Below are positions 1-27,994 of a stretch of 64,000 nt of DNA, one piece after another; the first letter of the stretch is position 1; each line of letters opens with the position of its first letter. Origin of the DNA: a virus. Its lineage: Duplodnaviria; Caudoviricetes. The stretch covers positions 32,001-96,000 of the IMG/VR virus record IMGVR_UViG_3300032319_001025. One strand, 5' to 3'. A program made the translations under genes and the position numbers. The notes beneath the pieces were generated by a model that saw only the letters and a program-made list of their open reading frames with translations, ran no database searches and had not been told where the DNA came from.

Positions 1-11
1 ATCTATTAGGT

Positions 12-974: not shown

Positions 975-984
975 TGGTTTTAAA

Positions 985-3582
985 ATGGACCCAAAAGATA
1001 AAAAAACACCAGTAGCTTCAGCCGTTGTTATTAGGCATAGTGAGTTTCCAGAACTTATATTGCACGGCAAAAGAAGAGACATTAATGAATGGAGTATTCC
1101 AGGTGGGCACGTACATAAACATGAATCTTTAAAAGACGCTGCAGTTAGAGAAACTAAAGAAGAAACTGGTTTGCAATTAGATCCAAACGATTTAGAACAT
1201 ATTGGCACAGAGCACTACAATACAAAAGAAGATAAACACTTAACGGTCCATCTGTTCGTATGTAAAAAACCTTACCATCATGAGAGCATGGATTTTACTG
1301 GTGATAAAGATGAAGAATTTAAAGAATTAAAATTTATTAATCCATTAGAGCACGATGACTTATATCAGCCAAATGGAGAAAATATTGTAACCACCTACCT
1401 TAAAGGCGAGCTTAAAAAACCTGAAATTAGTAAATCAGAAGAATTAGATAAAGGCGTAATGAAAAGGCTTTTTCCGTTTAATCCAAAAAAAGACGTTAAA
1501 ACTGAAGATAAATCAGATTTAAGGCTTTGGCAAACTTATGGTAATTATGGATATAGCGGAGAAACAATTGATGATATTGATGATGTAAAATATGTTAGAG
1601 AAGGTTTAAGCGAAATTAATCAAAATGCTAAAATGCGAGCACTTAATAAATTAACAGGGATTGCAAAAACCAAAATAAATCCTGAAACAAAAGAAAGAGA
1701 ATTCTTATTACACAGAGGAGTGAGTTCTTCAGAGTTTAAAGATTCTACCGATGGAAAGCATGCTTATCATCAAAATAAAACATCTTGGATGCCATTTTCT
1801 GATTTAGCTGAAAAATACAGGGATTCACATTATTCAACTAGTGGCAGGATAGATCGTAAAAAATCAAAAAAAGATAGTGGTAAAGTAATATCCGCTTGGA
1901 TTAGCGAAAAAAACATCCACCATATTCCTAAAATGTACGGAGCAATTCACACTCCTACATCCCATGGTTTTAATGAATATCAAGAAGAAAATGAAATAAT
2001 TGTAAATCCTCACAAATCAGCTTTAGCAACTTCAGAAGAAATAAGAGGAAAAAATGATATCTTGCGCAACAAATTAAAAGATAATTATTTAAAAAATATT
2101 TCAAAACAATTTCAAAAACCCCAAAAACTAGCAGCAACTGAAAAATCAGAACTTAAAAATTTAGAAATTTATCAATTTTTTCACAATATTTCCAATAACT
2201 TAATTAAAGTTGAGGTTAAAGATAAAAATAATTTGCAAGTAGCTGAAGCAAGCTTTAAAATAGAACTAGACAGCCTAATTGTGCCAGAAAGCTTACAGAT
2301 TGACCGTAAACATGATCAAGCAGGCTTGCAAAAAGAAATGTACATTTATGCTGACGAGGTTTTAACTTTAAATAAGCAGGAGTTAGAAAAGATGTCTCAG
2401 CCAGCTTTAAGATTTAAAAAACTAACAAAATTGCCAACAAGACCTGAGCAGGACGTTAAATTAATTAACCCTGAGCCACTTAAGGTGCCTTCACGTACAA
2501 AAGAAGAAAAAGATATAGAAGAACTTTCTGGCGGCCCTAGAACAATATCTAGACAATCCCTAGAAAATAAGAAAATAGCTAATAAAATTTTAATGATGCA
2601 CCCAGAGGCAAGTAAATCACCAAAAGAAAAAAGAGAATCGGAAAGAAAGGCTTTGGAAGCGCATATTGGTGGAGGCGAAGACGTTATTTCACCTGAAGGT
2701 ACATTTACAACATCTGGATATACCTCTGGTTTTGGAGATTTACCAGTAAGTCAGCCTTATGAAGTTAAAAAACCGTGGCCTACATCCGAAGGTAATGTAA
2801 CTCAAGAGCACGAAGCAACTCATCATTTATTAAACCATTTAAGATTCAAATATGGCGAAAATACAAAAAATAGAGTTGTCGATCATCTTTTAAACGTACA
2901 TTTGCATCCAAATGAAAGAGAAGCAATAGAAAAACTTATTAGATCTAAACCTTCATATAGAGATTTACCAGAAGGCGAATTTAATGAAGAGGTACTAACC
3001 CATCTTAGAGATTTATTAGTAAGTAAAAGAAAAAGAGAAGATCATAACTCATTAAAAATGCAACAGCCTAAATATTGGCAACCTATTGATTATAAAAGGC
3101 TTAAATCATCATGGAAACAGTTAACAGGTCATGCCAAAAGAATGACGGAAAAAGACCTAAATAAGCTTATGGGCAAAAATGAAGGCCAAATTGATTTTGA
3201 AAAGCTTTTTAAGGCTAAAAAACTTAAAACCAAGCAATTTAAGCGTTTTTATCTGGATAGAAAAAAAGATCATAGCGGCAACACTGGAAGTGGAATAGTT
3301 GCAGTAGGGGTACAGTTTCCTGGCGGTAAATGTATAGTCAATTGGATGACCGATACACCATCATTTAATTTTTATGATTCTTTGGATGATATTAAAGAAG
3401 TTCACGGGCATGATGGAGATACAGAGATTAACTTCATGGATGATTTTAACAAAACTGAAGAAATGAAAAAGTTTGAAGATATTCATGAGAAATTAGCTTC
3501 TCGGTCTAAATATCTTAGAAAAGATCCTTTGCATAAGTTGCCGTTTTTATTTTTAAATAAAAGATTCATGGGAAAAGATTAG
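985..3582 (+). CDS. Multi-domain polyprotein: Nudix hydrolase + ADP-ribosyltransferase-like + degenerate GNAT + HExxH zincin-like + small conserved phage domain
   Basis: Nudix box GGHVHKHESLKDAAVRETKEETGL; ART R-S-E triad LLHRG / TSW / EENEIIV; GNAT-like QIDRKHDQAGLQKEMYIYAD; EHEATHH; C-terminal RFYLDRKKDHSGNTGSGIVAVG...HGHDGDT module. Linkers ISKSEELDKG, KLAATEKSELK, ELEKMS, LMGKNE, LFKAK, FNKTE. Confidence 0.75.
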   Translation: MDPKDKKTPVASAVVIRHSEFPELILHGKRRDINEWSIPGGHVHKHESLKDAAVRETKEETGLQLDPNDLEHIGTEHYNTKEDKHLTVHLFVCKKPYHHESMDFTGDKDEEFKELKFINPLEHDDLYQPNGENIVTTYLKGELKKPEISKSEELDKGVMKRLFPFNPKKDVKTEDKSDLRLWQTYGNYGYSGETIDDIDDVKYVREGLSEINQNAKMRALNKLTGIAKTKINPETKEREFLLHRGVSSSEFKDSTDGKHAYHQNKTSWMPFSDLAEKYRDSHYSTSGRIDRKKSKKDSGKVISAWISEKNIHHIPKMYGAIHTPTSHGFNEYQEENEIIVNPHKSALATSEEIRGKNDILRNKLKDNYLKNISKQFQKPQKLAATEKSELKNLEIYQFFHNISNNLIKVEVKDKNNLQVAEASFKIELDSLIVPESLQIDRKHDQAGLQKEMYIYADEVLTLNKQELEKMSQPALRFKKLTKLPTRPEQDVKLINPEPLKVPSRTKEEKDIEELSGGPRTISRQSLENKKIANKILMMHPEASKSPKEKRESERKALEAHIGGGEDVISPEGTFTTSGYTSGFGDLPVSQPYEVKKPWPTSEGNVTQEHEATHHLLNHLRFKYGENTKNRVVDHLLNVHLHPNEREAIEKLIRSKPSYRDLPEGEFNEEVLTHLRDLLVSKRKREDHNSLKMQQPKYWQPIDYKRLKSSWKQLTGHAKRMTEKDLNKLMGKNEGQIDFEKLFKAKKLKTKQFKRFYLDRKKDHSGNTGSGIVAVGVQFPGGKCIVNWMTDTPSFNFYDSLDDIKEVHGHDGDTEINFMDDFNKTEEMKKFEDIHEKLASRSKYLRKDPLHKLPFLFLNKRFMGKD

Positions 3583-3590
3583 GTTTTTTT

Positions 3591-6500
3591 ATGCCAAAAA
3601 TTTTACATGGAATTTTTAGCAAGCTGGATAAATACTCCAATGACGTACAAACAAAAGCGGAAAAGTATATAAAATCTCCAGAGTTCAATGAAAAAACCTA
3701 TTTAAACCTTCTATCTGGAAAATATAACGATGATATTGCTAGAATTATAGAGGTTTTACCAAGCGTCAAAAAAAGTAAATACAACACAAAAAGCAATAAC
3801 GATAAAATAATTTCAAATGTTTTAAATTTTAAACAGAAGGATGATGCCGATTTTTTTTGGAAAGCTGGATATATTGAATATTTTTTACGGCACTTAAAAC
3901 ATTCTACAGAATCTGTAAATAAAATTATTAACTTCGTTAAGAATAAAAAAAAAATACCAACAGAGGAAAAAACCAATTTACTCCGATCCCTAAACAAAAG
4001 TTCTGAAATTAAAAAAACAAATATTAAAGATATAATAGATACCGTACCTAATGACCCAACTGGTGCATCTGTTATAAATTTATTTATAAATCACCCATCC
4101 GTAGATTCTAAAATTTTTAACGAAGTATTAAAAAAGTTTGATTTTAACAGTAATCGACTTCCAGGTGGAGTTTTAACTTCTAAATTCTTAACTTCTGAAG
4201 CTGCATTAAAAATTTTAAATGATACTGATACTATAGGTGATTCGAATGAATTAGATAAACTTTTGAGCAAATTACCTAAAAGTGCCAGAAACGATTATAT
4301 ACATTCAAAACTTGGGATTACTGGAGGTTCTAAATCTCCATCGCCAGAGGAATATGAAACTGATTGGTTTCATGGCCCAGAAAGAGATGAAATTACCGCC
4401 AGAACAATTTCTGAATCAAAATACTTAACTCCAGAAGCTATTAATCATATTAAAAAACACGGCGGTTTTGGTGAAAAATATGGATTATTTAGTAATGAAC
4501 ATGTAGATCCAAAACATGCAGCAGAAATGGCAGCAAAATGGGCCAATGATGAAGATGGTTACGAAGAATCTGATTTTAAAGAAAGACTTAAAGAAGATAA
4601 TCAAGATAACGTTTGGGATAATTATTCTGATGATGCAAGAGAAAAAGTTCAAGAAGAATACCCAATTTCTAAATACTTAAGAGATATCGGCGACGATGAA
4701 GTTTCCAGAACTCTTTTTGATAAAGATCATGATGAATGGAAAAAAGATTGGATCAAAGAAAACAAAGATTTGACAGGCCCAAATCCTGATTTTAATCCAG
4801 AAGAACCAGAAAGCGAAGATAATCCAAAAAATATTACATTTAATGAAGATGAATATGATATTAAATATCCAGTAGAAGATCATCCGAATTATAGTGATTA
4901 CGATTCGGAAGCAGAGGAAGCTTTTGAAAACGCAAAAAATCATGCGGATCTTGAACCGTTTTACGATGGTTATGATGAATCAATAAACGAAAACGTTAGC
5001 GATGCTGTTTCTGATTTATTTGATGACGAATTAGATAATTGGACTGAGCACGATCATTTTTTACCAGAACACGTTAGAGATAAATTAAAAGATCCGTTAA
5101 AAGGTAAAGAAAATCCTACAGAAAAAGATCTTGAAGAAGCTATTTATCATCCGTTAAAAATAGTTAGGGACCATGCCGCTAAACACGAAAAATTATCACC
5201 TAGACTTATCAATAAAGTTTTAGAAGAAGGTGACAAAAAAGCAAAAATGTCCGTATTAGAGAATCCTAATATCACATCGCAGCAGTTAATGAATGTAATC
5301 AAAAAAGATGATGATAAGGAAACCGTATCAAAAGCACTTCGGAATTTTAAAATAACCCCAGAGCATGTTCAAGAAGCTATCAATAGGCACAATGAAAATA
5401 GCGAAATAATGAATGCAGCTTTTAAATCCCATGCCGCAAATGATGAACACGTAAAAAACTATTTAAATATAGCTAAAAGTTCTAAAACACCTTACTATAA
5501 TGATCTAAGCCCAATTGTTAATTCTAAATTCAATTTGTCCCCAGAAGATGTTAACTTTATTTATAATAAATTTAATGAGCAGGGCAGGTATAATGATCTG
5601 TCTAAGCTGGTTTCGCATCATAATTCAACAAAAGATATTATCGAACAATCATTAAAACATCATGACTATAAAGTAAAAGAATCAGCAAAAAAAATGATGG
5701 ACAGGAAGTTCCCACAATCCGCAGATCCTGTAAATGTAAAAATGGGAACTCATCCTTTAAGGGTATTGAGAGATATAGTGTCTGAACAAGGTGGTACTAC
5801 CACAAAAGGCAAATTAAAAAATTTAGGCATAAATCCAGATAAATTTAATACACTGTTTAAGCCTAATGGCACAATTTCATCAGACGATATACAAAAAGTA
5901 ATTGATTCTGCTCCGAGTAAAAATTATAATACTTCTCATGATAAATGGACTGGAGCGCAAAGGCACTCAGCAGACCCATCTGATGTGTTTCAGCTTAATT
6001 ACACTCAAGAACATTTAAATGAAATGCAAAAAGAAGGTGTTCTAGACACTTTCCAAAAAATACATGAAGTTGCAATGAGATCTGGGCATCCAGTAAAAAA
6101 TAATACTATTGGATGGGTAAGATATACAGGAAGTCCAGAAGAAGGATTTCATATTGACGAAATTCAATCAGATTTAGGTAAGTCTATTATTAATCAAACT
6201 ATCCAACAGGCTAAAAACGCTGTACAAAACAACCAAATGACCACAGAACAAGCTGAAACAGCCGTAGAAAATGCTAAAAATAAATTTCCAGAAGACCATT
6301 TAAAGAAAATAAATAAGATACTCTTTGAAGATAAACATCCAAGTGAGATAATACACGAAGCTTTTAAAGAATATATGAGAGGTAAAGGTTTTGAAAAAAC
6401 CCCAATACATATATGGCAGCCAGAATCTAAAGCCCCAATATCAGGCATGCGTCAATCTACTAAAATATCCGCAAGTGATGCTAAAACTGCTTTAAACTCT

Positions 6501-7292
6501 GCTAAAAAAGATAGAATGGATGATGAAGCGAAAGCTTTAATTTCTTGGGGGCAAAAAAACAAATTAGCCCCAGCATCTTTTAAAGATATTACGCATGAGC
6601 ATTTAGATCAAATTGCTGAAAAATATTCAGATTTTGCAAATGCACACAGAGAGCAGCATAATTCTGATCCAGAATTACCAGTTCAGTTGCCCGTACACAT
6701 GATTGAAGGTTATGGTAAAATTCCTAAAGCTATGGGTTATAAAGAATCTTTTTATGGTAAGCTGCCTACTCAAAGTAATGAGGAATATAAAATTAAACCA
6801 GAAATAAATCAATCTGCAGCCCCGACATACGAAGATGTAATTAGAAAGAACGAAGGACAACCAACTATTTTACATCATTATAGTAGACACCAAGATCTAA
6901 AAGAACTAGACCCTAAAAAAGAGGGTATGGGTGTTAGAGGAGATCATACAAAAAGATTTTTACCATATCAAATAAAAAACTTTCCACATGTAACATTTTA
7001 TTACATAAATGATACTCCAGAGCAAATAGTTAAAGATGCAGCTAAGTCAAAATACACCGTAAAACTAGAGCCACATCAAAAACTATATAACTTGCATACA
7101 GATCCTGAAGGTTTAGGAAGGCAGGCGATTGCAGAAAACCAAGGTGCATGGAATTATGAAAAAATCTTTAATAAAATTAAAAATGCTGGATACCATGGTA
7201 TAACTGCAATAGGCTCTGAACATCCAATTATTGGAAATACCGTAATGCTATTTCATCCTCAAGCGATACATGAGGAGAAAAAATTAGTATGA
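3591..7292 (+). CDS. Large polyvalent protein: helical HEAT/LRV-like repeats, acidic tract, EIQSD domain, C-terminal ART-like module
   Basis: Repeats such as HAAKHEKLSPRLINKVL / SVLENPNITSQQLMNVI / KALRNFKITPEHVQEAI; GWVRY...FHIDEIQSD motif; after the VIRKNE linker a domain with LHHYS...FYY...KIKNAGYHGI that resembles polyvalent-protein ART modules. Confidence 0.55.
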   Translation: MPKILHGIFSKLDKYSNDVQTKAEKYIKSPEFNEKTYLNLLSGKYNDDIARIIEVLPSVKKSKYNTKSNNDKIISNVLNFKQKDDADFFWKAGYIEYFLRHLKHSTESVNKIINFVKNKKKIPTEEKTNLLRSLNKSSEIKKTNIKDIIDTVPNDPTGASVINLFINHPSVDSKIFNEVLKKFDFNSNRLPGGVLTSKFLTSEAALKILNDTDTIGDSNELDKLLSKLPKSARNDYIHSKLGITGGSKSPSPEEYETDWFHGPERDEITARTISESKYLTPEAINHIKKHGGFGEKYGLFSNEHVDPKHAAEMAAKWANDEDGYEESDFKERLKEDNQDNVWDNYSDDAREKVQEEYPISKYLRDIGDDEVSRTLFDKDHDEWKKDWIKENKDLTGPNPDFNPEEPESEDNPKNITFNEDEYDIKYPVEDHPNYSDYDSEAEEAFENAKNHADLEPFYDGYDESINENVSDAVSDLFDDELDNWTEHDHFLPEHVRDKLKDPLKGKENPTEKDLEEAIYHPLKIVRDHAAKHEKLSPRLINKVLEEGDKKAKMSVLENPNITSQQLMNVIKKDDDKETVSKALRNFKITPEHVQEAINRHNENSEIMNAAFKSHAANDEHVKNYLNIAKSSKTPYYNDLSPIVNSKFNLSPEDVNFIYNKFNEQGRYNDLSKLVSHHNSTKDIIEQSLKHHDYKVKESAKKMMDRKFPQSADPVNVKMGTHPLRVLRDIVSEQGGTTTKGKLKNLGINPDKFNTLFKPNGTISSDDIQKVIDSAPSKNYNTSHDKWTGAQRHSADPSDVFQLNYTQEHLNEMQKEGVLDTFQKIHEVAMRSGHPVKNNTIGWVRYTGSPEEGFHIDEIQSDLGKSIINQTIQQAKNAVQNNQMTTEQAETAVENAKNKFPEDHLKKINKILFEDKHPSEIIHEAFKEYMRGKGFEKTPIHIWQPESKAPISGMRQSTKISASDAKTALNSAKKDRMDDEAKALISWGQKNKLAPASFKDITHEHLDQIAEKYSDFANAHREQHNSDPELPVQLPVHMIEGYGKIPKAMGYKESFYGKLPTQSNEEYKIKPEINQSAAPTYEDVIRKNEGQPTILHHYSRHQDLKELDPKKEGMGVRGDHTKRFLPYQIKNFPHVTFYYINDTPEQIVKDAAKSKYTVKLEPHQKLYNLHTDPEGLGRQAIAENQGAWNYEKIFNKIKNAGYHGITAIGSEHPIIGNTVMLFHPQAIHEEKKLV

Positions 7293-8353
7293 AAAATTTG
7301 ATTAAACAGCCGCATTTGATTTTTTCAATGGAAAATCCTAGATATCAGGTAACCCAAAAAGATATAAATCATGGACAAGCTTTAAATATGCTTAAAGATT
7401 TAGGCGAGAATACTATTGATTCTAATGGAAAATATGGATCGGAAGAGCCATCAATTATAGTTTCTAACCCTAAAAACGTTAAAGATATAATCAAGCTTGC
7501 TAGAGATGCTGGACAAGAATCTATTATTTACTCAGATGGAAAAAGACATAAAATGATATATTTAAACGGTCCCCAAGCTGGACAAACGGTTAATGGGGAA
7601 GGTACGGTTTTCTACAATCAGAAACCAAATGATAACTACACACATTTTAAAGATCAAAACGGTAAAGATATTTATTTTACTCATAATTTTGATTTTGGTA
7701 AATCAGAGAAATTGCAAAAAACTTCTAAAATTAATTTGAATCCAGAACATGGGAAAATTATCGCAAATGCATACGAAAAAATGAAACATGATCCAAATGA
7801 TCCTAAAGTTAAAGAGGCGTATGGTGCGCTAATTAATGAAACAAAAAAACAATTTAAAGATATGTTAAATTCTGGGTTTAAATTTTCTAAAATTAAACCC
7901 GAACAGTCCAATCCATATGGCACATCAAAAGATGTACATGAAGATATAGAAAAAAATAAACATTTATGGTTTTTTCCAACAGAACAGGGATTTGGTCAAG
8001 AGGGACAAACTAAAAATCATCCAATGCTAGAATCAACTGAATTTCAATTTGAAGGTAAACCTTTATTAGCTAATGATCTGTTTAGAATAGTTCACGATTA
8101 TCGCGGTCATTATTTAGGAGGTAAAAGCTCGTTCGGACCTAAAGGAGAGCATCAAGCTTATCTTACACATAAAAAAGATTTTAGCCCTTTAGCTCAAAAA
8201 GCTTTGGCTACAGAAACTATGGGTCAAAATAATTGGGTAAATTTTGGACCATATGGAGAAAAAAACAGAAAAAACCCCGAAAACACTACATACGCAGAAC
8301 AAAAATCGGGGCTTCTTCCTGACGAAATAATAAATGGGAGATGGCACGAATGA
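7289..8353 (+). CDS. Two-module protein: N-terminal T3-type SAM lyase-like domain + C-terminal NDLFRxVHDxxGH domain
   Basis: LIFSMEN...NHGQALNML...GKYGSEEPSIIV...LARDAGQESIIY...MIYLNG...NYT matches the motif order of T3 SAMase (GCY..EE..V, Q-D-C-V-L). Linker FGKSEKLQKTS, then FRIVHDYRGH...GEHQAY...ETMGQN, a possible metal-binding domain. Confidence 0.6.
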   Translation: MKNLIKQPHLIFSMENPRYQVTQKDINHGQALNMLKDLGENTIDSNGKYGSEEPSIIVSNPKNVKDIIKLARDAGQESIIYSDGKRHKMIYLNGPQAGQTVNGEGTVFYNQKPNDNYTHFKDQNGKDIYFTHNFDFGKSEKLQKTSKINLNPEHGKIIANAYEKMKHDPNDPKVKEAYGALINETKKQFKDMLNSGFKFSKIKPEQSNPYGTSKDVHEDIEKNKHLWFFPTEQGFGQEGQTKNHPMLESTEFQFEGKPLLANDLFRIVHDYRGHYLGGKSSFGPKGEHQAYLTHKKDFSPLAQKALATETMGQNNWVNFGPYGEKNRKNPENTTYAEQKSGLLPDEIINGRWHE

Positions 8354-9783
8354 ATCATAAACATTACAGAAGGATACTGCTCGACTCTTTTGATGAAAAT
8401 TCTTTGCAAAAAGGTTCAAAAGGCGATTGGCAAAAAGAAGGGTACAAAATACATCATGTTGGAGATCCTAAAAGTAGTTTTGACGTTATTGCAGTTTCCC
8501 CAAAAGGAGAAACCATCGGTAAGGTAAATATTGGAAGATACGAAACAAAAACAAAACCAAATCTAGTGGCTTCTAACCCAATTGTACATAAAGATCACAG
8601 ACGTAAAGGTATCGCATCTGCTATGTATCAATATGCAGAAAAAGTATCTGGTGGAGTAATGAAACCAGATGTAGGATTAACTTTATCGGCAAAACAAATG
8701 TGGGCTAAACCAAATAGACCTTTTGGCGGTAAACGTAAATATTTTCAACATTTAATATCTAAATCAGAATTAAAGAAGGCACCATTTATTCATGAACACA
8801 ATGCTTTTGCAGCAAGTAATATAGGTCCTTATATCGGAGAAGATTCAGAATTAGAATCTGTTACCAATCATAAAGGTTACAAGGTTTATAAATATAAAGA
8901 CGGCGATTATCATTATTTTGCTATACATAAAGATAACGATCCCAAAAAAGAAGTACTTTCATCAGCTACCGTATCTTCTTATTACGATCCTGAAGATCCA
9001 AATTTTGACGAAAATGAAGGGTTGCCTTATATTGAACATGCAGCAACGTTATCAGAACACCAAGGTAAAGGCATGGGAACAGCCATTCATGAGGCTGCAA
9101 CAAAACATTTTGGAACATTATTAAGCAGTACCGCGCTTTCTCCAGGAAGCGACGCAACTTGGAAAAAGATGCGTGCAAATAAAAACATAAAATTAAAAAT
9201 TGGAAGAGGTGAATCAAGTCCCTATATAGCTAAATGGATTAAAAAGCCCAAAATTAACAAAACAGAAGATTTAAATCAACTAGCTAAAGGTTTTGAAGAA
9301 TTATTTGGTTTTTTGGCTAAAGCAAAAAAGAATATTATATATATAGCTACCGATGGAGATAATATCGGTGCTTCAGTTGAAAGGGCCGCTCTATCTAACG
9401 ATATTAAAGAAATTAAAAAACAAGATAAAATTATTAAAAGAGGTAATCAAACCGTAAGAAAGTGGATTAAAAAACGCAAAGGTTCAATTTATATTGACGG
9501 TGGCGATGATATTTCTTTTACTATTCATAAAAAATATTTAGATGAAATCGAAGAACTAAGGAATAAATATCATGAGGCTACTGGATATACAATCACAGTT
9601 GGAATAGGTGATAGTATATCAGAAGCCGCTCATGCCATGGTTTATGGTAAATTAAAAGGCAAAAACCAAGTAAATAGATGGACATCAGAAATAGAATCTA
9701 TTATTTCTCAGCATGATAAAAAACCTGAATCCGCAGAAGAAAAATATCAAAAAGAAGGTCTTTTGGTTCCCAAAAAGATATAA
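8341..9783 (+). CDS. Polyprotein: two GNAT acetyltransferase domains + C-terminal mCpol (minimal CRISPR polymerase / GGDEF-like nucleotide cyclase)
   Basis: GNAT motif A twice (VHKDHRRKGIASAMY; EHQGKGMGTAIH). mCpol pattern YIATDGDNIG...IDGGDD...TITVGIG...EA..A...GKLKGKN. The real start may be the ATG at 8350. Confidence 0.8.
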   Translation: MARMNHKHYRRILLDSFDENSLQKGSKGDWQKEGYKIHHVGDPKSSFDVIAVSPKGETIGKVNIGRYETKTKPNLVASNPIVHKDHRRKGIASAMYQYAEKVSGGVMKPDVGLTLSAKQMWAKPNRPFGGKRKYFQHLISKSELKKAPFIHEHNAFAASNIGPYIGEDSELESVTNHKGYKVYKYKDGDYHYFAIHKDNDPKKEVLSSATVSSYYDPEDPNFDENEGLPYIEHAATLSEHQGKGMGTAIHEAATKHFGTLLSSTALSPGSDATWKKMRANKNIKLKIGRGESSPYIAKWIKKPKINKTEDLNQLAKGFEELFGFLAKAKKNIIYIATDGDNIGASVERAALSNDIKEIKKQDKIIKRGNQTVRKWIKKRKGSIYIDGGDDISFTIHKKYLDEIEELRNKYHEATGYTITVGIGDSISEAAHAMVYGKLKGKNQVNRWTSEIESIISQHDKKPESAEEKYQKEGLLVPKKI

Positions 9784-9823
9784 CTAATTAAATATATTCA
9801 ATTATTTGCGTCTTTTTGTTATG

Positions 9824-9832
9824 ACTTAATCT
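9824..9832 (+). promoter_or_regulatory. Candidate late promoter motif ACTTAATCT
   Basis: Intergenic, 34 nt before the ATG at 9867. Confidence 0.65.
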
Positions 9833-9866
9833 TTTAAGTAGGCATTATTAAAAGAGTTTTAATAAA

Positions 9867-11018
9867 ATGGCAAAACTAACAAAAACAGATTATTTTGATG
9901 CTTTGTGGAATTTGTATCAAGAAAACAAAAAAAAGGCATCTATGCCACCACACGTTGGCGGCGAAGAACAGAAATATGTTGTTCATGTTGGTGGTCAAGC
10001 AATAACCGAACCCAAAACATACAAGCAAATTATTCAAGACCATGGCGACATTAAAAGATTAGAAGCATCTGGAGCAAGAGTTCTCCCCCATGTGCCAAAA
10101 ACAACACCAAAACCGCCACCATTGCCTAAACAAACAAAGACAATGGGCAAAAACCAAGATATTAAAATACCTAAAAAAGAATTTATTAAAGAGCACAAGC
10201 GCTTAATTGATGTTCTCGAGTCTCCTTCCCATAAAGATGACGTACAGGAAGCTAAAAAACAAAGAAAAGAATTAAAAGAAATCAACAAATCAGATAAATA
10301 CTTTCAAAATTTAAAAAAGGGCTACGCACAAAAAAAACTTCCAGTAGATCCAAATAAAGAATCTCAAATGAATGCCATGTTAATAGATAAATGGCAAAAT
10401 GAACAATATACGCCAACTAGAGCATTAATTAAACCATTAACTGGAAATTTAAGGCAAAGAGCGTTAAATAGACTAGCTGGTACAACAAAAGTCAGAAAAG
10501 CAAAAGACGGCAAAAGAGAGTTTTTATTGTATCGAGGTGTTAGCGATTCTGAAAAAGATAGCGCATTAGATAACAACGTTTTAAATTATCCAGAAAACCA
10601 ATACACTTCATGGACACCACATCAGGGAATAGCTGGTAGATTTGCAAATAGCAGAATGGGTCATATTATTGGCGCATGGATTCATGAAAATGATATACAA
10701 CATTACCCTAAAATGGTTGGAAATGTATATGAAAGGCATAAAGGAAAGCCTATTAAATCCGCAAATGATTATGCTGGAGAAGATGAAATTATAGTTAGAC
10801 ATACTAGACCGCATGAAGGGCACGTAACGCATTCATTTTCTACGGATTCAAATTTTATAAAATATAACACTAAAAGTCCGATTAAAAACGAAATTAAACC
10901 AGAAAGATTGGTTGCATCAGAAGAAAAAAAGAACAACGAAGACTTCTTAAAAGAAGAAATATTGGATTTTTCCGATGAAGAAACCCTAGAGCACTCTACT
11001 AACAAGTGGAGTAAATAA
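9867..11018 (+). CDS. Polyprotein with ADP-ribosyltransferase-like domain
   Basis: REFLLYRGVS / YTSWTP / GAWIHE / GEDEIIV, clearly paralogous to the ART domain of 985..3582. Linkers INKSDKYFQNLKKG and RLVASE. Confidence 0.7.
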   Translation: MAKLTKTDYFDALWNLYQENKKKASMPPHVGGEEQKYVVHVGGQAITEPKTYKQIIQDHGDIKRLEASGARVLPHVPKTTPKPPPLPKQTKTMGKNQDIKIPKKEFIKEHKRLIDVLESPSHKDDVQEAKKQRKELKEINKSDKYFQNLKKGYAQKKLPVDPNKESQMNAMLIDKWQNEQYTPTRALIKPLTGNLRQRALNRLAGTTKVRKAKDGKREFLLYRGVSDSEKDSALDNNVLNYPENQYTSWTPHQGIAGRFANSRMGHIIGAWIHENDIQHYPKMVGNVYERHKGKPIKSANDYAGEDEIIVRHTRPHEGHVTHSFSTDSNFIKYNTKSPIKNEIKPERLVASEEKKNNEDFLKEEILDFSDEETLEHSTNKWSK

Positions 11019-13774
11019 TGCCTGTTTTAACTCCAGAACAACACGAAAAGGAAATGCACTTAGCAGCTAGTTCTGGCGACTGGGATAAAGCTATAAAACA
11101 CGCAAAATCCCAACCTAAAAATTGGTCGGCTTTTGATAAATTACCCCAATATGAAATCCCCCCAGAAGCTTTTGAAAAAGTAATTAATTCGGTTCCAAAA
11201 AATGATAGGGCTAATTTTTATTTTGAGCTTGCAAGCAACCTTCATCCAAATTTAACTCATGATCAATTAGATTTTTTAGGCAGCAAAACTGGAAATGACA
11301 TTTACGCACAAGATTCAATAAAAAACCACCCTAATTGGAATCCTAAAGAATCAAAGAAAAATTTAGGTGAAAAGTCAGCATCTGATTTTTGGTTAAGCTA
11401 CGAAAGAAGAGTAGAGCCGCATCATTTTGCTACAATTAAGTCTATATTTTCTGGCAAACCAGAAGAAATAACAGATCATAGAGGTAAAACTGGAAACAGC
11501 CATTTAGGAAGTATTCAGAATGGAAGGCTATACGAAAAAGAAAGTAATATAGCCGCAAACGGACCTAAATTTTATGGCGATCAATTTTTATCAAACCTTA
11601 AAGACGTACATCCATATTTATTAGATCATGCAAAAAAAGTTCAAGACGCTATAATGCAGGATGAAAATATAGAAAAAAGAATTATAAACGGAAAACCTCA
11701 CATTAAACTTTATAGAGGTGTTGGAGGGTCTTACGCTAAAAGAATAGCAAAATCTTCAAAATATGATCCAAAAAATCATTCAGTTGAAAACAAAAAGTTT
11801 AAAATAAAATCAGCCCCCTTTAGTTCATGGTCTACTGAAAAAGAAGTAGCGGATAATTTTGCTAAATCCAGAACTAACATTACTGGAACTATAGGTCCAG
11901 CAAAACCAGGAGAATCTATAACACTATCTTCGTGGATTCCAGTAGAAAACATTTTACATTCGGGCTTTCATAGAATTCATACAGGTCAAGAACATGCACA
12001 TCCACATGAATCAGAAATAATAGTATCTCATCCAACAGGATACATGAATTTAAATTCAAAAGATTTACACCTCGTTAATACACTTAAAGACCCCTATTCA
12101 AGCGAAATTGAAAAAGTTTCAACAAGAGGCATTATCCCACAAAAACTGGCTGCATCAGAAAAAGAATATTTTAATGATTTGTTAGAAAAAAACCTCAGAT
12201 CTAAAATTGCTGCAGCAGCTCTAGGAGCATCTTTATTATCTACGCCAGCAAACATAAAAGAAATAAAACGACCATTAAATCAAATTCAAGAAAAACAAAC
12301 TCAATTACATCCAGATTTAGTTGATATTTCAGCAATTGAGAGTAATTACGGAAAAAACAAACAACATAAAAAAGTTTTAACTGGCGTTAACATGGGACAT
12401 AAAGCCGCTGGAGCTACTGGCTTAATGCCATTAACCATTAAAGAAACTATTAAAAGAAATAAAAACTTATCCGATAGATACCCACAAACCATTTCAATGG
12501 ATCACGATCAGTTAACTGATTTTATTAATAAAAACCCAAACATTGAAAACAAAATAGCTAATGCACATTATAAAAAACTTTTAAAGGTTTTTAGTAATAA
12601 CAAAAATAAAGCGATTTTTGCCTGGAGGAACGGCATTTCCGCAGCCAAAAACGCTTCACAAGAAGAAATAAATAACAATCCCTATGTAATAGCAGTAAAT
12701 AAAGCAAAAATAAACATAAATAAATCAGATAAATACTTTAAAAGTCTTAAAAAAACAAATACTAAGATTAATCAACCAAATAAAATAAATAAAAAATTTA
12801 TAGCTGTTATTAATAAAGGCACGTTATCAGATGGAAAATATAATCCTTCCCCTTTATATTATGTGGGCGATGGCAATCACATGACAGAACCATATAAAGC
12901 TATGGCTTTTGATTCAATAGAGCAAGGTAGAAAAGAAATTGAAAATTCTTGGAAAAAAAGATCTCAAAATGAAGAATATAAAAGAACGGCACCACATCCT
13001 TTTGACATTAGCTTTATAGAAGATCCAAGGCCAGGAAAATGGAACGAAGATGAAAGTTATTATGAAGATGAAAGCGGTAATCCAATTTTAGACAGTAAAG
13101 GCAATGTCATACACGCAAAAATGCCAAAACTAGAATTTAACGAACCTAATTCTATTATGGTGCATGTGGAAGACCCTTCAGATCAAAAAGAGCTAAAGCA
13201 AAAACAAAAATTAGCTTCAAGCTTAAAAAGCCAGGGCAAAAAAGTAGATTTAGTATATCCCAAAATGCCAGAACAAAAGGTAAAAATACAATCATACAAA
13301 GAAGCAATGAAAGAAATAGCAGAGCAGGAAGCAAAACAAAAATTAAAAGATTACGGATATGATGATGAAGGAGTAAAACAAGCTATTCAAACATCAGGAG
13401 AAAAAACAAACGTTATTCCAGAAAAATTAGCAGCATCTGAGCTTTATTTTAAAAATCTTAAAAAATCAAATGAAAACAAACAATTATTAAATAAATGGAA
13501 AAAATATTTTAAATCAAAAATCAAAAAAACTGACGGCATTACAACTACTACAATGCCAAGAGGACAAAGCCCTGGTCAAACAGGCCCATCATTAAATGGA
13601 ACATCAATTAAAGAACAGCCCAGAGGCCCGATTGGAACAATTAGGCCGTCAAAGGATTTACAGCAGATTTCACAGTCTTTTACGGGCAATTTGGGACAAC
13701 CTGGTATATCAGCAGCTGCATCAAATCTTAGAAGATTTTTGGGTAAATCTAAAGGTTTAAATAAAAAACAATAA
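11018..13774 (+). CDS. Polyprotein: ADP-ribosyltransferase-like + lytic transglycosylase (SLT/lysozyme-like) + unknown module
   Basis: KLYRGVG / FSSWST / HESEIIV triad. SLT motifs ISAIESNYG...AAGATGLMP...AW.NG. Linkers KLAASEKEYFNDLLEKN, INKSDKYFKSLKKT, KLAASELYFKNLKKS. Confidence 0.7.
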   Translation: MPVLTPEQHEKEMHLAASSGDWDKAIKHAKSQPKNWSAFDKLPQYEIPPEAFEKVINSVPKNDRANFYFELASNLHPNLTHDQLDFLGSKTGNDIYAQDSIKNHPNWNPKESKKNLGEKSASDFWLSYERRVEPHHFATIKSIFSGKPEEITDHRGKTGNSHLGSIQNGRLYEKESNIAANGPKFYGDQFLSNLKDVHPYLLDHAKKVQDAIMQDENIEKRIINGKPHIKLYRGVGGSYAKRIAKSSKYDPKNHSVENKKFKIKSAPFSSWSTEKEVADNFAKSRTNITGTIGPAKPGESITLSSWIPVENILHSGFHRIHTGQEHAHPHESEIIVSHPTGYMNLNSKDLHLVNTLKDPYSSEIEKVSTRGIIPQKLAASEKEYFNDLLEKNLRSKIAAAALGASLLSTPANIKEIKRPLNQIQEKQTQLHPDLVDISAIESNYGKNKQHKKVLTGVNMGHKAAGATGLMPLTIKETIKRNKNLSDRYPQTISMDHDQLTDFINKNPNIENKIANAHYKKLLKVFSNNKNKAIFAWRNGISAAKNASQEEINNNPYVIAVNKAKININKSDKYFKSLKKTNTKINQPNKINKKFIAVINKGTLSDGKYNPSPLYYVGDGNHMTEPYKAMAFDSIEQGRKEIENSWKKRSQNEEYKRTAPHPFDISFIEDPRPGKWNEDESYYEDESGNPILDSKGNVIHAKMPKLEFNEPNSIMVHVEDPSDQKELKQKQKLASSLKSQGKKVDLVYPKMPEQKVKIQSYKEAMKEIAEQEAKQKLKDYGYDDEGVKQAIQTSGEKTNVIPEKLAASELYFKNLKKSNENKQLLNKWKKYFKSKIKKTDGITTTTMPRGQSPGQTGPSLNGTSIKEQPRGPIGTIRPSKDLQQISQSFTGNLGQPGISAAASNLRRFLGKSKGLNKKQ

Positions 13775-13836
13775 TAAAATATATAACTAGTTGAATTAAT
13801 TAAATAAAATTAATCAAAAAAGCATTATTTTATATT

Positions 13837-13845
13837 ACTTAATCT
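13837..13845 (+). promoter_or_regulatory. Candidate late promoter motif ACTTAATCT
   Basis: Intergenic, before the ATG at 13863. Confidence 0.65.
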
Positions 13846-13862
13846 ATCAAATAGAGGTAATT

Positions 13863-15845
13863 ATGTCTAAGTCCTTATTAGAACAGGCTCAGGAATTATT
13901 AAAAAGCATTGAAAACAATCCAGAAGCATTAAAAGCTTTTCAAGAGCTTGTAAAAGCACGCGCAGAAGAATCAAAGCACATTGAAATGGAAATGTCACCA
14001 GACCAAGAAAAGAAAAAACGCATTGATGAATTGTCCAAAAAAATTAAAGCTTGCATGGAAAAAATGCAAAAAGAATCAATGGATAAAGACGACAAGCCAC
14101 ATTTACCAGGAACTCCAGAAGATAAAGCTCATGATGTTGTCGAAGAAGGCGAAAGTGTTAAAGAAGCCATTCACGGATTAAAAGATAAAAGTGAAGATTC
14201 TAAAAAAGAAATGCTTTCACATTTAAGATCTTTAAAAGATAAATCCCAGCTTAGAAGCCCAGAAAACAGGGAAGCTGGTAAAGAACCTCATGAAAAAGCT
14301 GAAACTGGACACGAAAAAGGTGTTCATCAAGCAGATTACAGCACAACTTATATAAAAGATAATAAAATTCAGCACGGTATTTCAACTGCTGGAATTAGAG
14401 CAAGAGAAGCCTCTAAACCCCGTTCTTTTAAAGAATATGAAGAATCACCTAAAGCAGCAAAGGCGGGTCACGAAAGAGTATTAGAAGAAATTAAACAACA
14501 GCCTAAACCCAACCTTCCTAAAACTGAAAAAGCTGAAACAGAAAAATCTGTACACGGAGTTCCAGGAAAAAATAGGCCGTTACATTCACGTGGCATACAC
14601 GAAACTGTAAGTCAAAGCAGCTCAGAGTTTGGCGGCGAAGCAAAAGAAAAAAGCCTTGCTGGATTAAAAGTAAGACGTGGAGATACTGCAGGAGCAAAGA
14701 AGGCACATAAAGAAATTGTTTCCGAGCAGAAAAAAATGCCTGTTGCAAAATTACCAAAAGCTGAAACAGAAAAAAATGAAACTTATTACAGAAATTTAGT
14801 TAAAAATACTTTAGAAAAACAACTAATGTCTCCACCGTTCGGAATGAGCGAAATGGAAAAAGAAGAAGACCCAAGAGAAATGGTTGAATCAAGTTTAATG
14901 GCAATTCACAGAAAAGCTAATTATTTGCAAAAATTGCTTCATGAAGTTTGCGAATGTAAAGAAGTGCCAGCTTGGGTTCAAGATAAGCTTTCTTCTGCTA
15001 AAACGCATATGACCGATGTAATGGATTTTATTGCATCTCAAGCAGGAAAAGGTAGTCATCATGAAGAGCAAGAAATGCACCCAGCCGAAACTGCAGAAAT
15101 TGTAGTAACTAAATCTGAATTAGAAAAAGCCAAAATTGACGAAGGTAAACAACTAGGAAGCAAAATAGCAGCAAGACAAGAAAGAAATATTAGGGACGTA
15201 ATTACAACTAAAACCCCTTCTGGACAAAAAACAAGGACAGCAAGATCTTCTGCAAGAAGAGAAAAAGAACTAGAAGAAGGTAAAAAGCCAGAATCTCTCT
15301 TATCTGCTTTAAAAGAGCATGCGGAAAGAAGGAAAGGCGAAAAAATTGTAGGAAAACCTAAAACACTAGAAAATATTAGCGGTAGAGACATTAGAGGCAA
15401 GTCTGCTGAACAAAGAGCTGGCGTACACATGCATTCTGGTTCAATGGCAGGTAAAGAAATGCCAATTGGAGTTTCTGCACCAGTTTTTGCAGATAAAAAA
15501 GGTAAAGCTTATCCTATTGGTGGATTATTCGGTGAAAATAAATATTCTTCTAAAGTTAGACATGAAGAAGTAATGGAAGGCTTAAAAAACATTAAGCCAA
15601 GTTTACCTAAGTCCGAAATGAAAAAAGAACAGCTCGAGCCAGCTCCGAAACCACAAAGCAAACCTAAAATGATTGCACCGCCTGCTAGTGGTGCTGGTGC
15701 AAGCGATGGGGGTCATGGCAACTGGAAAGGCGACGGAAAAGGCCCGAAAATGAAAAAACCAGTAAAATTTAACTATAAAATTGCAAAAGCTGAAAAAGTA
15801 CAATATTATTCAAATTTAGTTAAATCTTTATTAGATAAAAAGTAA
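13863..15845 (+). CDS. Charged, repeat-containing putative head-internal / scaffold-like protein
   Basis: K/E-rich; three internal repeats GxH...H.E(V/I)..E.K..P..LPK(T/A/S)E; a module with VPAWVQDKLS; termini paralogous to 23768..24490. Confidence 0.5.
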   Translation: MSKSLLEQAQELLKSIENNPEALKAFQELVKARAEESKHIEMEMSPDQEKKKRIDELSKKIKACMEKMQKESMDKDDKPHLPGTPEDKAHDVVEEGESVKEAIHGLKDKSEDSKKEMLSHLRSLKDKSQLRSPENREAGKEPHEKAETGHEKGVHQADYSTTYIKDNKIQHGISTAGIRAREASKPRSFKEYEESPKAAKAGHERVLEEIKQQPKPNLPKTEKAETEKSVHGVPGKNRPLHSRGIHETVSQSSSEFGGEAKEKSLAGLKVRRGDTAGAKKAHKEIVSEQKKMPVAKLPKAETEKNETYYRNLVKNTLEKQLMSPPFGMSEMEKEEDPREMVESSLMAIHRKANYLQKLLHEVCECKEVPAWVQDKLSSAKTHMTDVMDFIASQAGKGSHHEEQEMHPAETAEIVVTKSELEKAKIDEGKQLGSKIAARQERNIRDVITTKTPSGQKTRTARSSARREKELEEGKKPESLLSALKEHAERRKGEKIVGKPKTLENISGRDIRGKSAEQRAGVHMHSGSMAGKEMPIGVSAPVFADKKGKAYPIGGLFGENKYSSKVRHEEVMEGLKNIKPSLPKSEMKKEQLEPAPKPQSKPKMIAPPASGAGASDGGHGNWKGDGKGPKMKKPVKFNYKIAKAEKVQYYSNLVKSLLDKK

Positions 15846-15846
15846 T

Positions 15847-16089: not shown

Positions 16090-16110
16090 AAAGAGCAAGA
16101 AAATCAAATA

Positions 16111-16119
16111 ACTTAATCT
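16111..16119 (+). promoter_or_regulatory. Candidate late promoter motif ACTTAATCT
   Basis: Upstream of the sheath gene. Confidence 0.7.
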
Positions 16120-16149: not shown

Positions 16150-18960
16150 ATGGCTCAATCATATACTACAGATAGCGGAATAACATTAAAGATTCCAGGT
16201 ACTTATGTAGAACAACAAGTCCGTTCAAATCAAGGCGGGGTTGCTACTGCTGGAATCGTCACCCTAATTGGTGAAGCTAACGAAGGTCCAGATTATACTC
16301 AAGAATCAGATTTAGATGCAAATTTATTTTCTCCTAGTGACATCGCCTCTGTCATAGTTAAATACGGTTCTGGACGAATTGTAGATGCTTTTAGAGCTAT
16401 TGTAGCCGCAGCTAATGATCCAGCTATTGTAGGTTCTGTTTCTGGTGTTAAAATTGTAAAAGTTAATGCTTCTTCTACTGCTGAAGCTATGTTGGCTCGA
16501 GCTGGTTTTGGTGATTATGCCACAATGTCGGCAAGAAGAGCTGGTGCCCCTGGAAACTTGATTAAATATTTAAATAGCGTAGCAACCGCTGAATTAGCAC
16601 CAACAACAGGTGCATTTTCTTATGTTCCGCATTATAGCGCATCGGCTGTTTCATTTAATTTAAGACAGAACGGATCTGCAGTAGACTCAAATTCTATCGC
16701 TAGTTTAACCGATGGACCTACCTTTGCCTCAACTATTGAAAACATTGCTTTAGGTACTCTGGCTTCTGGCGGAACCCTTAAAAAACCTTTAACTAGCTCT
16801 GTAGGTAACATCTCAGTTGCTGTAGTTGATGCCGGAACAAGTTTAATCGCCATTACAATGCCTGGTTCTATCGCTTCGGCAAATTTACCTTCGGTCGGAG
16901 ATTCTCTAGTTATCCCAAAAACTGGTGATTTTGGTGCCGCTGCTGATTCCGATATTATCGGTGCTGCTGATGCTAACAGAGGCGCATACATAGTTACTGA
17001 CGTTGTTAACGGAACCACAACTGCTATTATTACGGCAAAAAGATTAAACGCACCTTCAGGTGCTCCATCTGTAGCTGCAGTATTAGCTACTCCAATTTCT
17101 TCTGATGAATCGGTTCTTTGCTACACTCAAGTAGAAGTTAAAAATATTACTGGAATGGATAGACAATCTACCGTTGGATTATCTGGCGTGACATTCAATA
17201 CTACATCTAATTCTAACGGCACTTTTGTAATGTCGTTGAGCACTTCTTGGGCAGCTCAACCAAAAGCTGGTGATTATGTTAAAGTAGCTTCCCCGTTTGC
17301 TGGAGTTGCTGCTGGTCTTTATCAGGTAACAACATCTACTTCAAGTTCTTTTACTTGTTCCAGACTTTCAAACGGTTCTTCTGGAGCAACAGGTTCTCAA
17401 TTAGTTGCTGGTCCAATTTCTCAAGGTGCTCAACCTTTTACTGTTTTAAAACCTGCAATTGACGGTTTAGGTAAGAGCATGGAAATTGTTTCCGAGCCTT
17501 CATCGATTTGTAAAAACCCTGCTACTGGTGCTGCAGCTGCTTTTGCTACAGGAAAACCTCTGCTAGTTTCTGGTGCAGAATATAAAGTTTCTACTACTAT
17601 TAGCCGTAGCAACACTACAGATACTTTTAAATCTGGCGGAAGCGTAATTGCAAGCTTTGGTTGCATTGAAGAACTAGCTGATATGGTAGTAGGTTCTTCA
17701 GATATTAAATTTAGAATTAATGGTTCAGAAATCTTTGCTTGTGCTTACGATCAATTCCCAACAATAAAAGATGTTGTTGATTTTGCTAACAGCCAAACAG
17801 GATTTTCTGGCGCAGTTACTACTTCTAGCTTTAATTTAACTGCTTCTAGCAGCTTGGATAGAGGCACATTTAAATTAAGCGCATCGTCGGCTTCTTCTAA
17901 GCCAGCTCGAGTTAAAAAGGATGCGATTGAATTTCAAACAAATGCGAGCGGCGGCTCTTTAGCAACCGTTTCTTTGGCTGGAGTTCAATCTGGTCTTCCA
18001 GAAGCTATGGATTTAGCACAGTTTTTAACTGGTGGAGCTAAAGGCGGTAGCACTGGAGCTAATTGGGTATCAGCAATTGATGCATGCCAAGGAGTTATTA
18101 CAAACTTCATGGTTCCGTTGATCAGTAAAGATGCATCTGCCGATATTTTAACTGGAGATACAGAATCAACTTCTACCTATACAGTTGATGCTGTCAATGC
18201 TTATTTAAAATCTCATGTTGTTGACATGAGTTCTTTAAAAGCTCGTAAAAATCGTTCAGCTATTGTTTCAAAAAGCGGCACTTATGAAGAACAAAAGCAA
18301 GCTGCTTCATCTTTAGCAAGCTATAGAGTGTCAATGGCTTTCCAAGATGTTAAAGCTATAAGCGGAAGCGGTACAATCGTCCAATATCAACCTTGGATGG
18401 CTGCAATTATCGCTGCAGGAATGCAAGCTGCTGCTGGATACAGAGGTATCGTTAAAAAGTTTGCTAACATTAGCGGTATCGTTAAACCCGAAAAAGACTT
18501 TGACACTAAAATACCTTCTAACCTAGAAGATGCTTTAACTGCAGGTCTTTTAATTCTTGAGCCAGTTCAAACTGGTGGATTTAGATGGGTTTCAGACCAA
18601 ACAACTTATTCTGCTGATAATAATTTTGTGTACAACAGTCTACAAGCTGTTTATATCGCAGATATTATGGCTCTTACATTAATTCAAAATTTTGATAGAG
18701 CTATTGTTGGTAAGTCTGTCGCTGAAATTAGTGCTCAAATTGCATTAGTTTTCTTAGAAAGCGAAATGTTTAACTTCTTAAGATTAAAATTCATAGCTCC
18801 ATCTGATGATGCTCCAAAAGGCTATAAAAATGCCAAAGTTACACTTAAAGGTGGAGTAATGAGCATATATCTAGAAGCTAAGCTAGCTGGACTAATTTAT
18901 TTCGTGCCTATACAGTTCGAAATCAGTCAAGTTGAACAAACAGCTACACAAGCTCAATAA
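16150..18960 (+). CDS. Contractile tail sheath protein with large insertion domains
   Basis: N-terminal IPGTYVEQ and LIGEANEGP; C-terminal LTGGAKGG...GFRWVSDQTTY...NFVYNSLQ; GGGAG RBS. Confidence 0.9.
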   Translation: MAQSYTTDSGITLKIPGTYVEQQVRSNQGGVATAGIVTLIGEANEGPDYTQESDLDANLFSPSDIASVIVKYGSGRIVDAFRAIVAAANDPAIVGSVSGVKIVKVNASSTAEAMLARAGFGDYATMSARRAGAPGNLIKYLNSVATAELAPTTGAFSYVPHYSASAVSFNLRQNGSAVDSNSIASLTDGPTFASTIENIALGTLASGGTLKKPLTSSVGNISVAVVDAGTSLIAITMPGSIASANLPSVGDSLVIPKTGDFGAAADSDIIGAADANRGAYIVTDVVNGTTTAIITAKRLNAPSGAPSVAAVLATPISSDESVLCYTQVEVKNITGMDRQSTVGLSGVTFNTTSNSNGTFVMSLSTSWAAQPKAGDYVKVASPFAGVAAGLYQVTTSTSSSFTCSRLSNGSSGATGSQLVAGPISQGAQPFTVLKPAIDGLGKSMEIVSEPSSICKNPATGAAAAFATGKPLLVSGAEYKVSTTISRSNTTDTFKSGGSVIASFGCIEELADMVVGSSDIKFRINGSEIFACAYDQFPTIKDVVDFANSQTGFSGAVTTSSFNLTASSSLDRGTFKLSASSASSKPARVKKDAIEFQTNASGGSLATVSLAGVQSGLPEAMDLAQFLTGGAKGGSTGANWVSAIDACQGVITNFMVPLISKDASADILTGDTESTSTYTVDAVNAYLKSHVVDMSSLKARKNRSAIVSKSGTYEEQKQAASSLASYRVSMAFQDVKAISGSGTIVQYQPWMAAIIAAGMQAAAGYRGIVKKFANISGIVKPEKDFDTKIPSNLEDALTAGLLILEPVQTGGFRWVSDQTTYSADNNFVYNSLQAVYIADIMALTLIQNFDRAIVGKSVAEISAQIALVFLESEMFNFLRLKFIAPSDDAPKGYKNAKVTLKGGVMSIYLEAKLAGLIYFVPIQFEISQVEQTATQAQ

Positions 18961-27351: not shown

Positions 27352-27993
27352 TTACTCCATTATTGAAATACAGGTTCCTTTATTGCCAAATTTCTTCTTA
27401 AATTCATCAATTTGCTGTTTTGTTGGATTAAAAATTGCAAGAGAACTTGGGAACGGTGCAAAATCTTTAGCCCCTTGAAATTTTAACCTGCCCTTAAAAT
27501 TAAAAATAATTGTAGATTTTGGAAAAATTACTTCTTGCCAAAGTTTTGTTTCTGTTCTAGATGGCACCAAAGCAACAGCGGGTATATTATGTTTCAAACT
27601 TTCATTGGCGACCTTTTCAACTAATTTATAACATATTTTACTGGGAGAATAGGGTGGATTAATGTATAATGCCGATTCTTGTTTAGCATCCCAGTTTTCA
27701 CCCATTTCTTTTGAAACGAATTTTTTGCATAAAGTATCTTTTTTAGTAGCTGCGCAATCTAATGAAAAATTAAAAATTGAATTTAATTCATTAAACAGTT
27801 CAATCGGGGTTCCCCATGAATCATTTTTTTTGGAAAAGTGTATTCTTAGCTTTAGGTTTTTTACAAATGCATCTTTCCAAGTAAAACCGTTTTTTTCTAA
27901 TAAATCAGTAGCTTCCAATAATCTTTTTTTGGCTTCTTCTGGATTAGAAGAGCTAGCAACATTTAAGAGTTCAATAAGTTTAGATGAAAGCAT
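27352..27993 (-). CDS. Phage N6-adenine DNA methyltransferase (Dam-like) with an extra N-terminal helical domain
   Basis: WGTPIELF...FSLDCAA...INPPYS...LVPSRTET...GRLKF...APFPS. Start moved to the ATG at 27993, which has a GGAG RBS. Confidence 0.9.
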   Translation of the reverse strand: MLSSKLIELLNVASSSNPEEAKKRLLEATDLLEKNGFTWKDAFVKNLKLRIHFSKKNDSWGTPIELFNELNSIFNFSLDCAATKKDTLCKKFVSKEMGENWDAKQESALYINPPYSPSKICYKLVEKVANESLKHNIPAVALVPSRTETKLWQEVIFPKSTIIFNFKGRLKFQGAKDFAPFPSSLAIFNPTKQQIDEFKKKFGNKGTCISIME

Positions 27994-27994
27994 T

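Follow-up and report, generated by a model that had tools for sequence, protein, structure and literature searches.

Among the classic means by which phages counter type I restriction-modification (R-M) and bacteriophage exclusion (BREX) systems are the S-adenosylmethionine (SAM) lyases, which have been studied as free early genes. Relatives of these enzymes are now tied to type III CRISPR signalling as well. The lyase of phage T3, gp0.3 (SAMase; PDB 7OCK, 8BB1; PF23780), is a free-standing protein encoded by the first early gene, right behind the early promoters. In this report, we describe a T3-like module in another setting, on a stretch of 64,000 nucleotides from a virus of the Caudoviricetes (positions 32,001 to 96,000 of IMG/VR record IMGVR_UViG_3300032319_001025; this whole stretch is called the window below, and positions refer to it unless another phage is named). 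There, open reading frame (ORF) 7289..8353 encodes, on the + strand, a protein of 354 amino acids made of two modules, the first of which is lyase-like. What is new is a short-loop T3-like SAM lyase used as a swappable module of late, probably capsid-delivered polyvalent proteins.

Several described systems resemble this locus. The environmental phage lyases Svi3-3 and Orf1 (PDB 6ZM9, 6ZMG) belong to the same superfamily and carry the same Gly, Tyr, Glu and Gln-Glu-Ser set as the module described here (PMC7877911). Gly56, Tyr58, Glu69, Gln104 and Glu105 form the conserved SAM-binding set of Svi3-3 (Guo et al., PMC7877911); substitutions E69Q and E69A nearly abolish its activity, and T3 E68Q retains 20-30% of activity in vitro and gives no rescue in vivo (PMC7877911). 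The same superfamily, with the same key Glu and Gln, includes lyases of SAM-adenosine monophosphate (SAM-AMP), namely a CRISPR-associated enzyme of C. botulinum and the phage candidate AcrIIIB4 (DAN18478), which likewise carries a second, functionally unassigned domain (PMC12255297). The 'T-loop' running from Tyr to Glu is 10 to 12 residues long in the SAM and SAM-AMP lyases that have been characterised (PMC12255297). The SAM-AMP lyases superpose on the Svi3-3 type and hold AMP-stacking residues in this loop, whereas the protein studied here is without such a loop.

The virion protein gp6 of the T4-like cyanophage S-CREM2 is also composed of an N-terminal lyase-like region and a C-terminal extension. 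Described as a 'SAM hydrolase (virion protein)', it was detected with 19 peptides by mass spectrometry in purified virions (2023; PMC10665884), and the authors of that work suggested that it accompanies the incoming DNA as a defence against R-M (PMC10665884). The N-terminal region of gp6 aligns weakly to the profile of the subfamily described below; the G-x-Y, E and Q-D-S positions coincide, but the loop is longer and T3-like, and the C-terminal part is a different one. In S-CREM2 (region 838-3136), gp6 lies two genes away from the DNA adenine methylase gp8, so that a lyase relative and a Dam coexist in a cultured phage. Finally, polyvalent proteins combine disparate enzymatic modules in variable order, are encoded beside virion genes and have been predicted to enter the cell by early injection (Iyer et al. 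2017, PMC5512222); neither 'SAMase' nor 'adenosylmethionine' turned up when the text of that article was searched. Unlike the polyvalent proteins described there, the protein studied here has only two modules, neither of which matches a Pfam LPD family.

The virus record is complete (144,013 bp, with direct terminal repeats; 33.7% GC), and the lyase-bearing ORF is present in it as a single copy. A preliminary description of the window, made from the letters alone, had placed a T3-type SAM lyase-like module at 7289-7700, on the basis of a characteristic motif order. This order is indeed present in the frame of ORF 7289..8353, as S13, N16, H28, G47-K-Y49, E52-E53, S55, V58, L70-A71, Q76-E77-S78 and Y81. 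The gene extent had to be revised: 7289-7700 is not a gene of its own, but the N-terminal domain (about 137 amino acids) of an ORF that continues to 8353 with a second domain. The start of the ORF overlaps the stop of the upstream 1233-amino-acid gene (ATGA), and its last 13 nucleotides are shared with the start of the downstream GNAT-GNAT-mCpol gene. An NCBIfam search with the ORF gave no match.

The AlphaFold2 model of residues 1-146 is confident (predicted local distance difference test score, pLDDT, 88.7; predicted template modelling score, pTM, 0.83). When Foldseek was run with this model, chains of the T3 SAM lyase occupied ranks 1, 2 and 3; the T3 enzyme is the unique top match among 48,161 representative chains, and the Svi3-3 and Orf1 lyases are the second-best match. 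The model has the barrel-like antiparallel beta-strands and two outer helices of SAMase, and its 8 strands and 2 main helices agree with the published description of the T3 enzyme (PMC8406200). Identity to gp0.3 is only about 10-17%; sequence alone is suggestive, and the predicted structure settles the fold of residues 1-137 as of the T3 SAMase type. Known oligomers in the superfamily (a dimer in T3, a trimer in Svi3-3) have their active site between subunits; a two-copy prediction of residues 1-137 with SAM scored 0.00 and carries no weight either way on oligomerisation.

With phmmer, an exhaustive search of 1.84 billion representatives returned 457 clusters (E <= 1e-3), the proteins ranging from 136 to 2570 amino acids in length. 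Such exhaustive searching was necessary to make the family visible, as a length-restricted search with the N-terminal domain found only three short stand-alone proteins. The locus thus belongs to a large uncharacterised branch with a short loop, comprising at least 457 clusters at 50% identity. Within the family, PF23780 is matched by 37 of 65 phmmer relatives (best E 1.2e-9). This family transitivity, together with the fold and the conserved site residues, supports the T3-type assignment of the preliminary description.

To examine the active site, ten subfamily members were aligned with T3 gp0.3 using MAFFT. G47, Y49, E52, E53, Q76 and E77 pair with T3 G55, Y57, E67, E68, Q94 and D95, the pairing being one of sequence alignment, without superposed coordinates. 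Conservation was then calculated on 146 domain copies extracted from 50%-identity cluster representatives (the best 146 of the 457 clusters). The site residues are conserved at 93-99% (Table 1), a pattern that speaks for an active enzyme and against a fold in decay. Together with the PF23780 match and the T3 enzyme as unique top structural match, this conservation shows that the resemblance of the motif goes beyond chance. Moreover, H9, S82, H87 and H132 are near-invariant in the short-loop branch, and these extra His and Ser residues distinguish it from T3 gp0.3. So does the loop between Tyr49 and Glu53: it counts 3 residues here, and 3 (119 copies), 4 (26 copies) or 5 (one copy) across the set, compared to about 10 in T3. 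The 10-12-residue T-loop, a typical though not defining feature of characterised lyases, is therefore absent from this protein.

The module is found in many architectures. Of the 146 best copies, 94 lie at the N-terminus, 20 at the C-terminus and 21 inside the protein, and 11 stand alone. Partners of the module include PI3/PI4-kinase-like, GNAT, DUF5661, VTC, 2H phosphoesterase, NUDIX, ART-PolyVal, SLT and mCpol domains, among which ART-PolyVal, SLT, NUDIX, GNAT and 2H are typical of polyvalent proteins; in one relative (P0125), a 69%-identical lyase module is joined directly to an mCpol (Cas10-palm-like) domain. Such variety of partners and positions is the signature of polyvalent proteins, and it is seen for both modules of ORF 7289..8353.

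The C-terminal module matches phrog_3170 and is 60-85% identical to many phage proteins, either stand-alone or fused (48 copies solo, 56 C-terminal, 13 N-terminal and 3 internal). Cyanophage genes annotated as 'large polyvalent protein' contain the module, as do cluster-C-like mycobacteriophages. Its model is confident (pLDDT 93.9), and a structural search with this model gave no relative of solved fold; in BFVD, the same fold recurs inside phage proteins containing MuF, ART-PolyVal and NAT domains. Being widespread and strongly conserved without a solved structural relative, this module is a worthwhile target in itself.

The two modules are separated by a short linker that carries a K-[STA]-E motif. 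This motif occurs within 40 amino acids after the lyase module in 60 of 114 relatives, compared to 6.8% of background windows, an eightfold enrichment, and a stand-alone relative (P0122) ends exactly at the linker site (...KSEK). The motif marks the boundary of a cassette. It is also a candidate site for maturation by a head protease, which would cut after Glu. A K-[ST]-E-x-[LM]-x-K motif is present as well at residues 150 and 823 of ORF 985..3582, and recurs at module boundaries.

Unlike the first early gene of T3, the lyase-bearing gene lies in a same-strand, virion-associated block that ends at a tail sheath gene and a terminator-like hairpin, the latter likely being the end of the late transcription unit that contains it (Table 1). 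Sigma-70-like promoter sites are as numerous as in shuffled sequence and give no information on timing. The closest cultured relative is Myxococcus phage Mx1, which infects a high-GC Myxococcus, whereas the genome studied here has 33.7% GC. Its protein WNM70344.1 (13185-14864 in Mx1) contains a lyase-like module at residues 269-397 (E 2.3e-33 to the subfamily profile) and is encoded immediately upstream of the tail sheath, in a gene preceded by those for a giant NUDIX protein and a kinase. The position beside virion morphogenesis genes, as expected of polyvalent proteins, is thus shared by the two phages. The preliminary description had spoken of a cargo block, a view supported by the polyvalent-type modules, by this Mx1-syntenic location just upstream of the sheath, and by the fold relatives of the C-terminal module in MuF and ART-PolyVal proteins. 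Packaging and injection of the protein are plausible by this context, and the idea of a cargo is also supported by one published, indirect precedent, S-CREM2. In the gene that follows, the mCpol (minimal CRISPR polymerase) domain is C-terminal to the two GNAT domains, and no CARF or effector gene is found nearby.

Table 1. Features of the lyase-bearing locus and of the MetK-Dam cassette in the window
Feature	Position	Strand	Description
Lyase-like domain	7289..7699	+	residues 1-137; about 8 beta-strands, 2 main helices
G47-K-Y49-G-S-E52-E53	7427..7447	+	SAM-pocket Gly/Tyr, minimal 3-residue 'T-loop', key Glu (= T3 E68, Svi3-3 E69)
G75-Q76-E77-S78 'B-loop'	7511..7522	+	methionine-moiety binding; equivalents Svi3-3 Q104-E105-S106, T3 Q94-D95
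G47			conserved 93% (146 copies)
Y49			conserved 95% (146 copies)
E53			conserved 97% (146 copies)
Q76			conserved 99% (146 copies)
E/D77			conserved 98% (146 copies)
S78			conserved 97% (146 copies)
Linker K138-S-E-K-L-Q-K144	7700..7720	+	K-[STA]-E motif between modules
C-terminal module	7718..8350	+	residues 144-354; very conserved, invariant His/Asp/Glu-rich
Block of large multi-module (polyvalent-type) genes	985..15845	+	directly upstream of tail sheath
NUDIX protein gene	985..3582	+	
1233-amino-acid protein gene	3591..7292	+	
GNAT-GNAT-mCpol gene	8341..9783	+	mCpol PF18182, E 2.7e-19
Tail sheath gene	16150..18960	+	phrog_279, E 1.8e-23; 37.5% identity to Mx1 sheath
Terminator-like hairpin	18977-19005	+	strongest + strand one in 1-20000
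metK (SAM synthetase)	26198..27349	-	three Pfam domains, E 1.9e-52, 1.5e-31, 9e-25
Dam-family N6-adenine DNA methyltransferase	27352..28083	-	PF05869, E 1.6e-19; phrog_111

Taken together, we consider it somewhat better than an even bet (roughly 55%) that ORF 7289..8353 encodes a two-module polyvalent-type protein with a catalytically competent T3-type SAM lyase, made late and probably packaged and delivered. From the homology, fold, site conservation and module behaviour reported above, we infer SAM activity, packaging, cleavage and injection along the following lines. Residues 1-137 would most likely cleave SAM to 5'-methylthioadenosine and homoserine lactone in a pocket formed by Gly47, Tyr49, Glu53, Gln76 and Glu77. 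The lyase would be made late, with the virion genes, unlike the early lyase of T3, and the protein would probably be loaded into the capsid together with neighbouring cargo proteins, the lyase possibly being cut free at the K-S-E linker. Delivered with the DNA, it would starve SAM-dependent defences such as type I R-M and BREX at entry. If it is indeed delivered as a protein, the host would lose its defence ahead of any transcription, and the module might also be of use as a compact tool for SAM depletion.

Several observations weigh against this reading. PF23780 matches residues 24-120 with an E value of 1.3e-4 and 22.4 bits, below the gathering cut-off of 28 bits, and 9 of 15 full-length orthologues likewise match the family below threshold. 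A single-sequence search and two profile searches of PDB retrieved no SAM lyase (neither T3 nor Svi3-3), so that the link to T3 rests on the broader profile of Pfam and on structure; the comparison of the domain profile with the T3 sequence by hhalign was not significant either. With a Tyr-Glu loop of 3-4 residues compared to 10-12, the pocket is not the same, and a different SAM derivative could be the substrate. Late synthesis would moreover bring a SAM lyase together with the SAM-dependent Dam of the phage itself, a coexistence that has to be explained. As for maturation, a search of the genome for the T4-type head protease family PF03420 gave no match; its controls gave none either, which makes this search uninformative. 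As to the substrate, the odds lean to SAM, a SAM derivative is given a small share, and the remainder is divided between undecided and non-catalytic outcomes.

The presence of both a SAM synthetase, MetK, and an adenine methylase, reported in the preliminary description at 26198-27993, is borne out by Pfam and by a whole-genome search; the location was right, and the end coordinate slightly short, as the methylase ORF extends to 28083. The stop of dam and the start of metK are 2 nucleotides apart, in a tight two-gene cassette. A small ORF encoding a HAD/NIF-like phosphatase (27995..28351) overlaps the start of dam, upstream of the cassette. This combination led to the proposal, in the preliminary description, of a timed SAM switch, where an injected lyase would collapse host SAM, and Dam-MetK would later rebuild SAM for progeny methylation with a phage MetK insensitive to inhibition by the lyase. 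The proposal extends the reading developed above and does not exclude it. It is consistent with the presence of lyase, MetK and Dam in one complete genome, with the adjacency of metK and dam on the opposite strand and away from the late block, and with S-CREM2, where a virion lyase relative is also paired with a nearby Dam. It has against it that MetK is absent from nine of nine complete or near-complete (at least 90%) lyase-bearing relatives, and also from five fragments, so that the lyase works without it, the module having no need of a phage MetK. Five further relatives possessing only the C-terminal module also lack MetK. Three adenine-methylase (Dam-type) families are absent from the five lyase-bearing relatives checked; as these five lack both MetK and adenine methylases, the two needs are combined only here, a point in favour of the switch. 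The same MetK and methylase searches give positives on this genome.

MetK is annotated in many other phages, Streptococcus prophages and phages of Faecalibacterium among them; the lyase-domain search brought up none of these, and the presence of MetK here can be explained by Dam alone. MetK is most simply viewed as a support for the neighbouring Dam, and the coupling to Dam-MetK is not needed for the role of the lyase. Inhibition of MetK by T3 SAMase depends on residues found only in E. coli-like (enteric) MetK (PMC8406200); as this interface is limited to enteric enzymes, MetK binding cannot be assumed for the present lyase, which also tells against the switch. A pairing of lyase and MetK as a conserved system was rejected on the distribution of MetK. 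The timed switch makes a reasonable hypothesis only for this one phage, as a special case at most, and we regard it as rather unlikely. Still less likely is a more elaborate two-phase SAM economy, in which a capsid-delivered short-loop lyase would remove host SAM, or a SAM-AMP-like alarm signal, within seconds and before transcription, and Dam-MetK would later give a private SAM supply, with a MetK that escapes the lyase. Lyase and Dam-MetK in one phage offer a natural test case of a virus both destroying and needing one cofactor.

A third possibility concerns the substrate. The module might be a lyase for a SAM-derived signal, a candidate being SAM-AMP, the second messenger of type III CRISPR (CorA), and the protein an injected anti-CRISPR of the AcrIIIB4 kind. 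Indeed, the superfamily includes SAM-AMP-specific lyases, one of which is phage-encoded and fused to another domain (PMC12255297), and the T-loop is nearly absent here. The fusion of a close lyase module to mCpol in P0125, and the mCpol at the end of the next gene in the window, point the same way, as do other fusion partners that act on nucleotides (NUDIX, 2H, VTC). SAM-AMP lyases, on the other hand, superpose on the Svi3-3 type, and the fold of the present module resembles T3 SAMase much more closely than that type; we consider this alternative, like the two-phase economy, to be improbable.

Slightly more doubtful is the view that the protein is not packaged at all and sits among virion genes by coincidence, acting instead in the cytoplasm as a late enzyme, for example to reduce SAM toward the end of infection or to keep out superinfecting phages. 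It would fit with the fact that neither a packaging signal nor a head protease was identified here (the PF03420 controls being silent, as mentioned), and that promoter-like sites, no more frequent than in shuffled sequence, leave transcription units unseparated. However, polyvalent-type genes surround this gene and overlap it, in a stretch that lies between head/neck genes and the sheath, as in Mx1; both modules recur in proteins containing MuF, ART-PolyVal or SLT domains; a distant lyase relative is present in S-CREM2 virions; and late cytoplasmic depletion of SAM would oppose the phage's own Dam. Finally, that the domain is only a non-catalytic PII-like ligand binder, a sponge or a MetK-binding inhibitor, having kept the fold without lyase chemistry, is very improbable, since the residues of this chemistry are near-invariant over 146 diverged copies, a pattern typical of enzymes, and the extra invariant polar residues H9, S82, H87 and H132 suggest a working pocket.

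A search of sequencing runs found the stretch in its probable source metagenome only, with no RNA dataset listed. Two further genes of the window were observed beyond the late block. Directly past the sheath terminator lies a gene for a 475-amino-acid HNH/homing-endonuclease-like protein (19053-20480; phrog_3339, E 4.8e-72), and a gene at 22883-23716 encodes a DnaJ-like co-chaperone with a J domain and a DnaJ C-terminal domain.

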